32,000 bases of DNA from Nanoarchaeum equitans Kin4-M (GTDB lineage: Archaea; Nanobdellota; Nanobdellia; Nanobdellales; Nanoarchaeaceae). Made by a program: the position numbers and the translations under genes. Where the stretch lies: contig AE017199.1 in assembly GCA_000008085.1 (NCBI GenBank), forward strand, positions 458,886 through 490,885, read 5' to 3'. Below are positions 27,538 to 31,652 of this stretch, piece by piece (position 1 is the first letter of the stretch; each line of letters starts with the position of its first letter). Below the pieces are notes generated by a model, which was not told the origin of the DNA, ran no database searches, and saw only the letters and a program-made list of their open reading frames with translations.

Positions 27538-28077
27538 TTATTGGATAAACAACCACTTTTCCGCTTTAACAACAAAATCTGCAGAAATTGTTATTTTTAC
27601 ACTATCTTTAGAAGTTTTGATTATATATGTGTTTTGTTCTCCAACAACTTTTTGTACTGTTATACTTGGATCATTAGGATTAATTTTTATGTTTTTCAAT
27701 TCAGCTAGCCCATTTACAGTTATTTTAATACCATTAGGAATAATGGTTGCATCCTGTATATAGATAATACCTTTCTTTAGATCATAACTTAGTTTTTTGT
27801 TTTGCCTATCTATTATAAATGTAAATTCCCTATTTGCTTTCCCTTCTACTATTGCAACTATAGGAAATTTAAATGGAAAATCAAAAGCGATATCGGATAA
27901 ACTAACTTTATAATTAACCTTATCTTCTTTAGTACTAGTTATAACGTTAAGAGAGTCGGATATATAATAAAAGGGGTTAACCAATTTTATTGTATAACTA
28001 GTTGCATATTCAGGTTTTTTGAATTGGGCTAGAACATACAAAATAGATTGCTTAAACCCTGCTAATAATTCTAGCAT
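27538..28077 (-). CDS. Hypothetical beta-rich protein
   Basis: 179-aa ORF with no recognisable motif. Its stop codon directly abuts the 3' end of tRNA-Ser(CGA). Confidence 0.5.
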   Translation of the reverse strand: MLELLAGFKQSILYVLAQFKKPEYATSYTIKLVNPFYYISDSLNVITSTKEDKVNYKVSLSDIAFDFPFKFPIVAIVEGKANREFTFIIDRQNKKLSYDLKKGIIYIQDATIIPNGIKITVNGLAELKNIKINPNDPSITVQKVVGEQNTYIIKTSKDSVKITISADFVVKAEKWLFIQ

Positions 28078-28122: not shown

Positions 28123-28179
28123 GGCCGGGGCAGTGGGAGGAAAATCCCCGTGACCCGGGTTCAAATCCCGGCGGGGGCA
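28123..28179 (+). tRNA. tRNA 3' half gene (GC-rich leader plus positions 38-73), probably tRNA-Glu
   Basis: A-TCCCC-GTGAC-CCGGG-TTCAAAT-CCCGG-CGGGGGC-A reads as the 3' anticodon stem, variable loop, T arm, 3' acceptor strand and discriminator. No matching 5' acceptor strand or D arm lies upstream. It is preceded by GGCCGGGGCAGTGGGAGGAAA. GUGACCCGGGUUCAAAUCCCGG is typical of archaeal tRNA-Glu. Confidence 0.75.
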
Positions 28180-28342
28180 TTTATGATTTGATCTATTATC
28201 TTTATTATTATCGATGTTTATATATTTTTGAATTATTTAAGATACCTCTTCATCCAATTTTTACCTAGCTCTATTTCGAGAACATAACTATTGCATAGCT
28301 TTTAATACATGGATAAAATATCTATTTGAGGAGTAGTTTGGA

Positions 28343-28362
28343 ATTTCTAATATATTAGAAAT
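28343..28362. repeat. Isolated copy of the palindromic CRISPR-repeat core
   Basis: ATTTCTAATATATTAGAAAT is a perfect 20-bp palindrome that contains the 18-bp core of the array repeat. It lies 1.4 kb from the array. Confidence 0.7.
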
Positions 28363-28548
28363 CCTATAAATTGTGGGAATGAGTAAACTCTCAATATCTT
28401 TTATTACAAAAAATTACAAATAATTTGAATTACTTAATCTCTCTAATAGTTTGTTTTATGACTGGAATGCGGTTTGTTTCCTTCTAATTCCTACCTATAA
28501 GCTATTTTATATTAGAACTTTTGGATAACGAAAGCTTAAATAAATATA

Positions 28549-28605
28549 GGGAGGCCCCCGGAGTAGCCCACTCCCAGGTGGGTGGGGGCGATGACACGGG
28601 GGCGC
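28549..28605 (+). repeat. GC-rich structured element A (paralog of element B, inverted)
   Basis: GCCCCCGGAGTAGCCCACTCCCAGGTGGGTGGGGGCGATGACACGGGGGC. A 7-bp terminal clamp GCCCCCG/CGGGGGC and an internal hairpin GGAGT/ACTCC. The transcribed strand, if any, is unknown. Confidence 0.6.
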
Positions 28606-28628
28606 TATTTTCTTTATATTTACAATTA
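28604..28628 (-). promoter_or_regulatory. Second copy of the motif that flanks the CRISPR array (leader-like)
   Basis: GCTATTTTCTTTATATTTACAATTA matches GCTATT...CCCTTATATTTACAATTA at 31660-31693, with a 15-nt identical core TTATATTTACAATTA. Read on the minus strand it gives TAAATATAA, which is TATA-like. Confidence 0.4.
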
Positions 28629-28723
28629 GCTTTCTTAAAATGTTCACTATGCTATTATTTTCAAGGATTTAAGCATTTAGTGTTAATGTACTAGAAACCT
28701 TGCATAAGGTTGTTATACAAAAA

Positions 28724-28746
28724 GTTAACATTTTTAATATGTTAAC
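28724..28746 (+). promoter_or_regulatory. Inverted repeat enclosing a TATA-like box upstream of element C
   Basis: GTTAACAT-TTTTAAT-ATGTTAAC is a perfect 8-bp inverted repeat. The TATA-like centre lies ~25 nt upstream of the GC-rich element starting at ~28760. Confidence 0.4.
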
Positions 28747-28759
28747 TTAATAAAATAAA

Positions 28760-28846
28760 CACGGCACCCAACAACAACGGGGGCGAGGTTCGGTTCCCGA
28801 TGATCCCCGTGAGGATGAGGGAGCCGTGAGCGGTCACTTCTTTTTT
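28760..28846 (+). ncRNA. Candidate structured small RNA (element C), family unassigned
   Basis: A GC-rich island in AT-rich DNA. Outer stem CACGGCACCC/GGGAGCCGTG (28760-69/28819-28), inner stem CGGGG/CCCCG (28778-82/28805-09), followed by TTCTTTTTT. A promoter-like box sits upstream. Confidence 0.5.
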
Positions 28847-28934
28847 ATGATTTTTCTAATTATTTCAATTCTTCTTGTTGGATTTCTAAATAAATCTCTT
28901 ATTCTTCTAAATAAGTTGGCCAAGTTATCTGCAA

Positions 28935-29399
28935 CTAGGTCAATCTTTTAATGTTGGGATCTCTAACTTTTCCCTCTTTTATTATATCTACATTGAAGAA
29001 GATCTGCTTAAATTTATGAAAAATGTTATCATCTACAACTATCAATTGGCTTTCATTTTTTATCAACTCTTCATACTCGGCTAGCAATTTATCTAAGTTT
29101 GTAGAATAATCTACGACCCTAAAAATGCTATTATCAAACTTTTCAGCAAATTTTTTAAGGTAGTCTCTCTTTTTCCAGTCTTCTTTTATTTCTTTTATAT
29201 GCTTTAATGTGGGAAACTTTTGTTTTAATAGAGATAGCTTGCTTTTTTCTATTGATATGATTGCATAAACTCCTCTTTCGAAATATTTTCTTTGATTGAT
29301 TGGGATGGTAGAAAAATTGGTTTTTGATCAATCTATTGCGGTTATTGGGGTTAAGTCTTTGTTATTTTGTTTCTTGCTTATTCTGTTGTTTTTTCCCAT
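28935..29399 (-). pseudogene. Interrupted ORF: 154 sense codons with a single in-frame TGA at codon 24
   Basis: ATG 29399-29397, in-frame TGA 29330-29328, then 130 open codons to TAG 28937-28935. The downstream part has no ATG or GTG, which explains its absence from the ORF track. TATA-like GTTTTATTAAAAT (29433-29421) lies upstream. Confidence 0.6.
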
Positions 29400-29499
29400 T
29401 CCTTAAGCTATCTTTGTGGGATTTTAATAAAACGTGTGGTAGAGACCTATTAAAATAACTAATATAACAAATAAAATGAGTCAAAATCGCAAGGGATAT

Positions 29500-29522
29500 A
29501 ATATTTCTAATATATTAGAAAC
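29500..29522 (-). repeat. Orphan truncated CRISPR repeat (23 of 28 nt)
   Basis: AATATTTCTAATATATTAGAAAC is identical to repeat positions 6-28. It has the same orientation as the array and directly abuts element B. Confidence 0.8.
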
Positions 29523-29574
29523 TCTTGCCCCCTATTTCATCGCCCCCCCATTGAGGGAGCCCGCTCCGGGGGGT
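29523..29574 (-). repeat. GC-rich structured element B (paralog of element A, inverted)
   Basis: The minus strand reads CCCCCCGGAGCGGGCTCCCTCAATGGGGGGGCGATGAAATAGGGGGC. It shares the ordered blocks CCCCCGGAG / CTCCC / GGGGGCGATGA / GGGGGC with element A. Confidence 0.6.
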
Positions 29575-29675
29575 TATATTATTACTCAATAATCTCCAAT
29601 ATATTTTTAAATCTTTATGCCTTATCAAAAAGTTTTTTATAAATATATTATCATATAATATTTTATGATAACCCA

Positions 29676-29711
29676 CTTCCAACATTTCTAATATACTAAT
29701 ATTCTAGAAAC
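29676..29711 (-). repeat. Degenerate terminal CRISPR repeat
   Basis: CTTCCAACATTTCTAATATACTAATATTCTAGAAAC equals the canonical repeat with 3 substitutions and an 8-nt internal duplication. One 39-nt spacer separates it from the first canonical repeat. Confidence 0.8.
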
Positions 29712-29750: not shown

Positions 29751-31652
29751 CTTTCAATATTTCTAATATATTAGAAACACTACAGTGTAATTTGGTCAGC
29801 AGGCGTCGGTTGGCTATAACTTTCAATATTTCTAATATATTAGAAACTAGCGACAATATCTTCTTCTCTCGTGTATCTCGGGAATCTTTCAATATTTCTA
29901 ATATATTAGAAACTATAGACCGCCATTGCGTATATGCTTAATTCCTTATCCGCCTTTCAATATTTCTAATATATTAGAAACGAGAAACAATTAAGCTATT
30001 ATCAATAACATTCACAGCAACCTTTCAATATTTCTAATATATTAGAAACTGGAGGACAACGAAAGGTTTTTAAAGGAACAGGGCGAGAATGTGGACTTTC
30101 AATATTTCTAATATATTAGAAACGTGGTTGGGAGGGAGCCGAAGGGTCCGAAGGGTTCGAATCTTTCAATATTTCTAATATATTAGAAACATGTTGTGTT
30201 CTATTGCCACGGATGTATCTGCTATTATGTCTTTCAATATTTCTAATATATTAGAAACTTGATAAATTCTTTGAAGTTATATGTAATTATCACTCTATCT
30301 TTCAATATTTCTAATATATTAGAAACATTTTCAAAGACTCTAAAAATCTGGGGGAAATGAAATTGGCTTTCAATATTTCTAATATATTAGAAACTATATG
30401 AATTGTCTAGGTACTTTTGTGTCTCATCCAAAAATAACCATGTTTCGTTCGAATTTCTGTCTTTCAATATTTCTAATATATTAGAAACCACATTTATGTA
30501 TATTATATAATACTTTAAAAGTCTAACAGCTTTCAATATTTCTAATATATTAGAAACGATCACATACAGGAATTGCTGAAGAAATTGTTACAGGAAAAGC
30601 TTTCAATATTTCTAATATATTAGAAACATGATAAGATGTTTGCTCAAAAAGCCAAATGCTTTTACACACTTTCAATATTTCTAATATATTAGAAACCATC
30701 ATATTTAAAGAGTTTGAGAACACGATACATTTCTTTCAATATTTCTAATATATTAGAAACGTGGGTCAATTTAAAGGATATTTCACAAATGTAGAGTTAG
30801 AAACTTTCAATATTTCTAATATATTAGAAACATCCTATCAATTCTGGAATCTGATGCTGGATCAAATATAACTTTCAATATTTCTAATATATTAGAAACT
30901 TCAGGACAAGAACAATGTAAAATAACTCAATTTAACATACTTTCAATATTTCTAATATATTAGAAACTCATTCTTAGATAAACAAGATATAGTATTTAGA
31001 AAGATGCTTTCAATATTTCTAATATATTAGAAACATGGCGGAACATTACAATTGAAGATAGATAATAAGAGTAACTTTCAATATTTCTAATATATTAGAA
31101 ACATCATTTCTTGTTGTCTCTGAAGCCAAAGAATCTGTAGAGCTTTCAATATTTCTAATATATTAGAAACCAGTCTTAACTATAATGCATGTTATTTGCC
31201 TAACTGATAACTTTCAATATTTCTAATATATTAGAAACATTGCAGTTTATACTGAAGATCCTTCTTAATTCTAGTTACTTTCAATATTTCTAATATATTA
31301 GAAACACAGCTAAACATTTATAAATAATTATATTATTATTATCCATACTTTCAATATTTCTAATATATTAGAAACTTACATTATCCCTAATTACTATTCT
31401 TACTATCGAATTGTACTTTCAATATTTCTAATATATTAGAAACTGTTACAAATGTGTATACTACCAATATCAATGCAAATCAACTTTCAATATTTCTAAT
31501 ATATTAGAAACTGTTAATGATTATATGCTGAGTTGTTAATAATGTTGTCCTCTTTCAATATTTCTAATATATTAGAAACTTAATCCCGTTCAAAGTAGCA
31601 CTTGAATCCAATAGTGAACTCTTTCTTTCAATATTTCTAATATATTAGAAAC
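29751..31652 (-). CRISPR. CRISPR array: 28 identical 28-nt repeats, 27 spacers (36-66 nt, mostly 40)
   Basis: Plus-strand repeat is CTTTCAATATTTCTAATATATTAGAAAC. Repeat starts: 29751, 29820, 29886, 29954, 30022, 30096, 30163, 30231, 30299, 30367, 30461, 30530, 30600, 30669, 30733, 30804, 30872, 30940, 31007, 31075, 31143, 31211, 31278, 31348, 31416, 31484, 31552, 31625. The minus-strand reading GTTTCTAATATATTAGAAATATTGAAAG ends in the canonical ATTGAAAG handle. Confidence 0.97.

Follow-up and report, generated by a model that had tools for sequence, protein, structure and literature searches.

The genome of Nanoarchaeum equitans ranks among the smallest and most compact of any cell; the organism has lost RNase P together with most of its metabolism, and any non-coding RNA (ncRNA) that it has retained is likely to matter. 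Its inventory of small RNAs (sRNAs) is considered known and consists of 26 C/D sRNAs, one H/ACA sRNA, tRNA halves and the RNAs (crRNAs) of its clustered regularly interspaced short palindromic repeats (CRISPR). The published catalogue, with the 26 C/D sRNAs, the tRNA-Met intron RNA and the one H/ACA sRNA, was obtained from 12 million reads (PMC3491384). Here we describe a candidate RNA gene not found in that catalogue, a G+C-rich island at 28759-28846 on the plus strand of a stretch of 32,000 nucleotides (nt) of the N. equitans Kin4-M genome (contig AE017199.1, positions 458,886 to 490,885; the window in what follows), and compare it with the closest described systems.

The N. equitans H/ACA sRNA, encoded between NEQ389 and NEQ392, is 159 nt long and forms two hairpins (Randau 2012, PMC3491384). 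In our own parsing of the published sequence each hairpin consists of a lower stem, a pocket, an upper stem of 6-7 base pairs (bp), a GA, a closing hairpin, GAU, a second GA and, further on, the ACA box. Archaeal H/ACA RNAs in general have a lower stem of 7-9 bp, an ANA box 14-16 nt from the pocket-closing pair, a GA stem of 8-11 layers (10 in productive guides), counted between the pocket-closing pair and the second G.A pair, and a bipartite pairing between guide and target that leaves a U-N unpaired in the middle (PMC4652768). The H/ACA-like sRNAs of Pyrobaculum (Bernick 2012), which PMC4652768 reclassified, have a degenerate ANA box, a displaced one (NCA) or none.

Our best overall explanation of the island is an orphan sRNA of the L7Ae-type kink-turn kind, built on an H/ACA-like scaffold and absent from the published catalogue, and we give this reading about an even chance. 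The more modest claim that the candidate is a real stand-alone RNA gene is likely, judging from its sequence.

Composition, transcription signals and fold of the candidate

The candidate has about 61% G+C, against 31% for the window. In A+T-rich hyperthermophiles such G+C islands are a classical mark of structural RNA genes, and Klein, Misulovin and Eddy are said to have taken this approach in 2002. The window has only eight islands of at least 70 nt that reach 55% G+C (in 40-nt windows); besides the candidate and two further unannotated islands, A and C, these are tRNAs or a tRNA half (five islands). The only open reading frames (ORFs) in the candidate are mechanical ones of 31 and 41 amino acids, with no credible coding frame among them. 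Five independent assemblies also carry this region, and over 2-5 kb they do not differ from the window (100% identity), which leaves no variation within the population to draw on.

In N. equitans, the genes for tRNAs, tRNA halves and the H/ACA sRNA start at a purine located 26 nt after a box A of the TTTAAA type, and T-stretch terminators follow the RNA genes of this organism (PMC3491384). The candidate shows the same arrangement of a stand-alone RNA gene, with a TTTAAT box A at this distance from a purine and a T-stretch after the G+C-rich body (Table 1). Box-A-like hexamers occur in the window at a frequency of 0.0054 per position, which makes the probability of a chance match at -26 +/-1 about 1.6%. 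The hexamer TTTAAT precedes the mapped 5' end of the N. equitans C/D sRNA16 with identical -26 spacing, and TTTAAA is found at -26 in sRNA12, the H/ACA sRNA, tRNA-Val, tRNA-Ser(CGA) and the tRNA 3' half. A preliminary description of this segment had proposed a stand-alone plus-strand ncRNA with its own promoter and oligo-T terminator; the promoter does match those of mapped N. equitans RNA genes, and transcription itself is a prediction from these signals. The product would be an independently transcribed structural sRNA of about 85 nt, running from A28759 to the T-run (28759 to ~28842, plus strand).

Box A lies at the centre of a perfect inverted repeat. The preliminary description had given this repeat 8-bp arms and suggested that it could be an operator; the repeat is real and its arms are longer, of 10 bp. 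In the whole 32 kb there are, this one included, just three perfect inverted repeats whose arms reach 10 bp or more across a spacer no longer than 15 nt, which makes it statistically unusual. Since its half-site shows no enrichment elsewhere in the window, a role as a regulator binding site or operator stays speculation.

The same signals bear on another explanation, in which the G+C-rich segment would act in cis, either as a structured leader or attenuator of a small ORF at 28848 or as a hairpin for termination or stability of a convergent minus-strand frame, or else would be untranscribed foreign G+C-rich DNA. An ATG that follows the T-run at 28848 indeed opens a hydrophobic frame of 34 codons, but the T-run separates it from the hairpin, there is no Shine-Dalgarno sequence, and frames rich in F, L and I are expected by chance on a T-rich strand. 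The minus-strand frame ends at 28935, converging on the candidate; neither this frame nor the small ORF has family support, their best Pfam matches being below the cut-off. The strand of the candidate also shares stretches of 10 identical nt with three other elements (the tRNA 3' half, a CRISPR spacer and island C), a further point for this explanation, but with p ~0.01-0.02 each they are at the level expected from the 13 comparisons made. A box A exactly 26 nt upstream of the first G+C-rich base favours a dedicated gene instead, and we regard the cis element or foreign DNA as very unlikely.

As a stand-alone RNA, the candidate would be one long hairpin with a basal stem, a large internal loop, a G-C stem of 6-7 bp and a kink-turn or K-loop near the tip (RNA positions are numbered from C28760 = 1). 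The basal stem P1 is the 10-bp outer stem CACGGCACCC/GGGAGCCGTG with one A.A mismatch of the preliminary description, recovered by RNAfold as 9 Watson-Crick pairs plus the mismatch (28766/28822) with pair probabilities of 0.85-0.99 at 37 °C. The inner CGGGG/CCCCG stem lengthens in RNAfold to the seven pairs of P2 (A-U, five G-C and G.U). The nested fold is identical at 37 °C and 70 °C, with pair probabilities for P1 and P2 together of 0.75-0.99 and 0.62-0.99, respectively. Between both stems, a CA-rich strand faces a purine-rich strand in an internal loop of 7-8 x 8-9 nt. The other elements listed in the preliminary description (AACAACAA, GAUGAU, UGAGGAUGA, the tail AGCGGTCAC and the oligo-T run TTCTTTTTT) are, like the CGGGG/CCCCG stem, all in place, although UGAGGAUGA, taken there for a kink-turn-like loop, is actually the 3' strand of the pocket-like internal loop.

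For the kink-turn we used a descriptor made up of four NC-stem pairs, GA, at least two C-stem pairs, a loop, a 3-nt bulge and GA. It gave 26 matches on both strands (64 kb), of which a single one is G+C-rich, GGGGCGAGGTTCGGTTCCCGATGATCCCC at 28785/28802, inside the candidate. The features of the kink-turn class are all present there: a C-stem, a 3-nt bulge, the G43.A27 and A44.G26 pairs and an NC-stem of four G-C pairs. The resemblance to k-turn RNAs noted earlier is in this way borne out by one canonical kink-turn (G26A27 opposite C38C39-GAU-G43A44), and not as a general property of GA-rich loops. Judging by this motif, it is somewhat more probable than not that the candidate RNA binds L7Ae. 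The minus strand of the candidate has a comparable folding energy, with no GA.AG kink-turn and no consensus box A.

Table 1 Features of the candidate RNA gene and of its surroundings (window coordinates)
Feature	Coordinates	Strand	Remarks
Candidate RNA island	28759-28846	+
Inverted repeat AAGTTAACAT-N7-ATGTTAACTT	28722-28748	.	perfect, 10-bp arms, centred on box A; possible regulator site
Box A (TATA-like) TTTAAT	28733-28738	+	begins 26 nt before A28759
Predicted transcription start, purine A	28759	+	just before the G+C-rich body; placed by the box A spacing rule
Basal stem P1, 5' strand CACGGCACCC	28760-28769	+	positions 1-10 pair with 60-69
Internal loop (pocket), 5' strand AACAACA(A), AACAACAA	28770-28776	+	positions 11-17(18)
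Upper stem P2, 5' strand ACGGGGG	28777-28783	+	positions 18-24 pair with 45-51
Kink-turn / K-loop	28785-28803	+	between the P2 strands
Non-bulged strand GA, G26A27	28785-28786	+
C-stem GG/CC, 2 bp (G28G29/C38C39)	28787-28798	+	closes an 8-nt loop
3-nt bulge GAU, G40A41U42	28799-28801	+
Bulged-strand GA, G43A44	28802-28803	+
Upper stem P2, 3' strand UCCCCGU	28804-28810	+
Internal loop, 3' strand GAGGAUGA	28811-28818	+	purine-rich; positions 52-59
Basal stem P1, 3' strand GGGAGCCGTG (RNA GGGAGCCGUG)	28819-28828	+
3' tail AGCGGUCAC (DNA AGCGGTCAC)	28829-28837	+	AGC at the place of ACA/ANA; UCA 6 nt beyond
Oligo-T terminator TTCTTTTTT	28838-28846	+
Sequence locating the candidate in NC_005213, ACACGGCACCCAACAACAACGGGGGCGAGG
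NEQ550	27538-28077	-	ORF, 100% identity
Split-tRNA 3' half	~28123-28179	+	TTTAAA 26 nt before G start
Island A	28549-28607	+	unannotated, G+C-rich
Island C	29524-29578	-	unannotated, G+C-rich
Relic CRISPR repeats	28340-28375, 29495-29532, 29654-29710		outside the array
Open frame of ~130 codons	28935-~29330	-	no ATG/GTG/TTG before the last 50 codons; converges on the candidate

Guide features and target searches

Several parts of an archaeal H/ACA hairpin are recognizable in the candidate: a lower stem of 10 bp, a two-stranded pocket and an upper stem of 6-7 bp. The GA stem has 9 pairs and one bulged C in one register and 7 pairs in the other. At the place of the ANA box, directly after the lower stem, the RNA has AGC, located 18 nt from the pocket-closing pair, and the nearest NCA is a UCA 6 nt further on. 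The preliminary description was right in seeing no ACA after the basal stem and in placing the element with neither C/D nor canonical H/ACA sRNAs, and it missed the likeness to both hairpins of the known H/ACA sRNA.

Targets were searched in the N. equitans 16S (1500 nt) and 23S (2990 nt) ribosomal RNAs (rRNAs), which were rebuilt from the alignment supplements of PMC4644070 and verified with five published guide-target fragments. With three definitions of the pocket, none of the uridines in the 16S and 23S rRNAs, the four tRNAs of the window and the tRNA 3' half has as many as 3+3 contiguous pairs around it. When the search was extended to eight registers, one mismatch per arm and the H/ACA sRNA as a further target, seven registers gave no 4+4 site at all, and the eighth, an outlying one that breaks the predicted fold, gave one marginal site at 23S U2202 that is equalled by 7% of the shuffles. 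Among the A+T-rich transcripts of the window the sites of the candidate were no better than those of shuffled guides. The partner needed by the 5' guide AACAACAA, UUGUUGUU, is absent from both rRNAs, and plain antisense matches to rRNA are 8-9-mers only, at chance level. As a control, the same scan returned sites for the published H/ACA hairpins, for example 4+7 pairs at 23S U2608, which are themselves unvalidated sites; the method is therefore able to find pairings.

The site just mentioned belongs to hairpin 2 of the H/ACA sRNA, whose guides GAGAGUC and UGUUAGU pair with GAUG-UC-GGCUCUU around 23S position 2608 (our own numbering), in the peptidyl-transferase region. Five of its 4+7 pairs are G.U and 10% of the shuffles score at least equally, so that it is not significant; it differs from the RNAsnoop predictions in the original paper.

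With no ANA box at the required distance and no bipartite complementarity to the rRNAs and tRNAs scanned, the candidate therefore probably does not act as a canonical rRNA pseudouridine guide; as both of these defining features fail, we rejected this assignment and did not file the candidate as an H/ACA guide. That it works as a pseudouridine guide is unlikely. A more specific version would make it a functional atypical H/ACA guide, assembled with L7Ae, Nop10, Cbf5 and Gar1 and directed to other tRNAs or tRNA halves, 5S rRNA, the signal recognition particle RNA, C/D sRNAs or A+U-rich mRNA. The succession hairpin-pocket-hairpin, with the kink-turn in the upper stem as in both known N. equitans H/ACA hairpins, would fit such a guide, and the pocket sizes resemble those of the known sRNA. 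In addition, the 9 pairs and the bulge of the GA stem could supply 10 stacked layers, and the UCA 6 nt past the stem has a parallel in Pyrobaculum, where H/ACA-like RNAs exist without a proper ANA box and some have a displaced NCA. The AGC at 18 nt instead of 14-16 nt speaks against it, as do the scans described above, in which nothing beyond the marginal U2202 site was found among the rRNAs, tRNAs and H/ACA sRNA, the window transcripts did not exceed shuffled guides and the rRNA partner of the 5' guide was missing. On balance we hold this atypical guide to be decidedly unlikely.

Relatives, neighbouring islands and CRISPR relics

The candidate matches no Rfam family: searches of the whole window, of 1.3 kb and of 101 nt gave it no family at the gathering threshold and no H/ACA family at E <= 10. 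The sole Rfam alignment of the candidate is to sR22, a non-significant one (E = 3.1) with 33 model positions deleted. Other RNA classes were considered and rejected as well. A C/D sRNA, which would have box C (RUGAUGA) close to the 5' end, box D (CUGA) close to the 3' end, internal C'/D' boxes and guides upstream of D and D', does not fit even in permuted form: as the preliminary description had observed, canonical boxes are lacking (there is no terminal RUGAUGA/CUGA pair), and the box-like CGAUGAU, GUGA, GGAUGAG and GUGA are 4-7 nt apart and do not enclose guides of 10-12 nt. For a tRNA or a tRNA half, neither ARAGORN nor Rfam returned anything, and the one resemblance, 10 nt identical to the neighbouring 3' half, is no more than chance. 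An H/ACA-like sRNA of the Pyrobaculum type, whose lower stem is lost or residual and whose single-stranded flanks guide it to rRNA, was discarded too, the candidate keeping a 10-bp lower stem and having no rRNA complementarity.

The sequence of the candidate is absent from the published sRNA catalogue (PMC3491384, Additional file 2). Among 8 million full texts no paper with the candidate sequence was found, and no later survey of N. equitans sRNAs turned up. Alignments of the candidate with the known H/ACA sRNA, the tRNA-Met intron RNA and islands A and C gave no significant similarity. The exact 69-mer had no match in a collection of genome contigs, in which N. equitans itself was also not found. 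Patterns of the structure coded as purines and pyrimidines gave one random bacterial match in metagenome contigs (again with N. equitans itself not found), 22 random bacterial matches in genome contigs and random matches in viral contigs; these chance matches lie in G+C-rich bacterial DNA. The source region seems to be masked or absent in the genome and metagenome collections, and the negatives are therefore silent on any paralogues that N. equitans may have at other loci, such as the surroundings of its second CRISPR array.

When a covariance model of the fold was run on the window and on 56 kb from the nearest relatives, the query was its only match; those 56 kb hold tRNAs and a tRNA half and nothing resembling the candidate. 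These relatives were reached through the adjacent split alanyl-tRNA synthetase (61-62% identity); their gene neighbours are different and the regions are not syntenic. NEQ550, which flanks the candidate, is an orphan, and the synteny route yields no homologue either. Without a homologue, covariation speaks neither for the fold nor against it. One of the relatives, from a hydrothermal vent (GCA_054016815.1, contig JBPMCH010000016.1, L008 234-330; synthetase 61% identical), is also A+T-rich with G+C-rich RNA islands, and contains an apparent split-tRNA 3' half, which suggests that N. equitans is not alone in having split tRNAs.

The 1.5 kb around the candidate are without convincing genes, with NEQ550 on one side and the trailer end of a minus-strand CRISPR array on the other, and contain the split-tRNA 3' half, the two orphan G+C islands, relic CRISPR repeats and a minus-strand frame without a start codon. 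This setting has to be weighed for one more explanation, a decaying H/ACA paralogue that has lost its ACA box and its guides and persists as a non-functional relic near the CRISPR trailer end. An H/ACA architecture with neither ANA box nor target, in a neighbourhood with relic repeats and a start-less frame of 130 codons, and with no homologue found, is what such a relic would leave. Yet the promoter, the purine start, the T-run, 9 of 10 basal and 6-7 upper stem pairs and a canonical kink-turn are all intact, whereas an unselected segment of about 61% G+C in a compact genome of 31% should erode and show broken stems. A paralogue of the known H/ACA sRNA is also hard to reconcile with the lack of detectable similarity to it (z = -0.5). 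We consider a decaying paralogue doubtful and, all in all, unlikely.

Local alignment identifies islands A and C as homologues (z = 6.1); with the candidate, their alignment is not significant (z ~2). Their shared blocks, CCCCCGGAG ... GGGGGCGAUGA.A..GGGGGC, would make an outer G-C stem and a GA/GAU-GA kink-turn-like core. An upstream box-A-like hexamer would give them an A+U-rich leader of 13-17 nt. Neither island matches Rfam or appears in the published sRNA table, and the pattern of the shared blocks gave random matches only in viral contigs. Like the candidate they are G+C-rich, with box-A-like hexamers, a T-rich 3' flank and a GA / GAUGA core, they lie at most 800 nt from it, and each of them contains GGGGGCGA; unlike the candidate they are shorter (~57 nt) and have no large internal loop.

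The CRISPR repeat of the array, GTTTCTAATATATTAGAAATATTGAAAG on the minus strand, ends in ATTGAAAG, the tag described for N. equitans crRNAs. One of the relic copies includes a palindromic core of 10+10 at 28343-28362. Island C, read on the minus strand, is preceded by a degenerate repeat copy and directly followed by another, GTTTCTAATATATTAGAAATATTATATCCC, so that at the array's trailer end it occupies the place of a spacer, though an oversized one. A G+C-rich spacer of the array itself, at 30124-30162, is tRNA-like on the plus strand, where its ...GGGAGGGAGCCGAAGGGTCCGAAGGGTTCGAAT corresponds to a class-II variable arm and the start of a T-arm; it has the 10-mer GAGGGAGCCG in common with the candidate and GAGGGAGCC with island C.

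The split-tRNA 3' half consists of a G+C-rich leader GGCCGGGGCAGUGGGAGG, the 3' strand of the anticodon stem, a variable loop, the T-arm CCGGGUUCAAAUCCCGG and the acceptor CGGGGGC-A. It was not called by ARAGORN, and Rfam sees the T-arm alone. The start-less frame has Spo0E-like (E = 0.0012) and Cas2 (E = 0.018) domains as its best sub-threshold Pfam matches and may be a decayed gene beside the array.

Proposed particle and comparison with known systems

Several points weigh against an orphan kink-turn sRNA. The C-stem of its kink-turn is only 2 bp long. Taken alone, its folding energy is not exceptional: the full element has a z-score of -1.1, and for the 70-79-nt core at 37 °C the values run from -1.5 to -2.7; composition, transcription signals and the kink-turn are the stronger lines of evidence. 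The register of P2 is ambiguous, with either a one-nucleotide bulge or a U.C pair at 3b.3n, so that C28784 (C25) may be a bulged base or the 3n partner of U45 in the kink-turn. The absence from the RNA sequencing catalogue counts as weak evidence against expression, because the work focused on abundant species with thresholds of thousands of reads and recovered structured RNAs such as tRNAs poorly (PMC3491384). Support from covariation is lacking, as neither homologue nor paralogue was found in searches that reach fairly close relatives only. Finally, the surrounding 1.5 kb look partly decayed, with their relic repeats and start-less ORF, and the candidate may be a relic like them.

If the sRNA reading holds, the kink-turn would be the site of L7Ae, with the protein acting as a clamp that stabilizes the fold. 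Such a clamp would be expected, since the naked fold is marginal at about 90 °C. Given the architecture of an archaeal H/ACA hairpin, the particle would probably be a ribonucleoprotein (RNP) nucleated by L7Ae, related to or derived from the scaffold of pseudouridylation guides. Its open internal loop would be the likely working end, binding a partner RNA or protein other than the rRNAs or the tRNAs tested.

A bolder proposal goes further: the candidate would not be a modification guide but the founder of a class of L7Ae/kink-turn RNPs on an H/ACA-derived scaffold, forming with islands A and C a cluster of three unlisted kink-turn sRNAs at the CRISPR trailer end. We consider this quite improbable. 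If true, such a cluster, with one sRNA joined to a relic CRISPR repeat, would hint that L7Ae RNPs are connected with CRISPR RNA biology or with genome rearrangement. The orphan sRNA alone, if real, would extend the N. equitans inventory by a further promoter-driven kink-turn RNA. It would also offer a natural case of a guide scaffold reused or degenerating, an H/ACA build with neither ACA box nor rRNA target, which bears on the evolution of H/ACA-like RNAs (such as those of Pyrobaculum) and on the partners of L7Ae beyond the classical guides.

Among the described systems, archaeal C/D sRNAs share with the candidate the means of binding L7Ae, a kink-turn or K-loop made of GAUGA and GA; GAUGA occurs twice in the candidate, as does GUGA. 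In contrast to the C/D sRNAs of N. equitans, which are compact (52-61 nt) with unpaired ends, it is long, base-paired and G+C-rich. The Pyrobaculum H/ACA-like sRNAs come closer, with a kink-turn hairpin, a GA stem of about 10 stacked layers and at times a bulged base beside the GA pairs. They have lost the lower stem, which in the candidate is strong (10 bp), and they keep the complementarity of a guide to rRNA, which the candidate has not, nor has it an Rfam match.

The N. equitans H/ACA sRNA differs in having two hairpins instead of one, and ACA in both where the candidate has AGC. The distance from the closing pair of the upper stem to the triplet is 16 nt in both of its hairpins and 18 nt in the candidate, and the basal stem is 8-9 bp and 10 bp long, respectively. 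The C-stem of 2 bp makes the candidate K-loop-like, its sequence is not similar to that of the known sRNA (z = -0.5), and it has no rRNA target. However, both RNAs belong to the same organism and have a box A at -26 and a T-stretch terminator, and their pockets are of similar size (7-8/8-9 nt in the candidate, 9/7 and 7-8/7-8 in the known sRNA). The order P2-GA-hairpin-GAU-GA-P2' is also the same, and the core GA...GAUGA of the candidate is identical in both hairpins of the known H/ACA sRNA.

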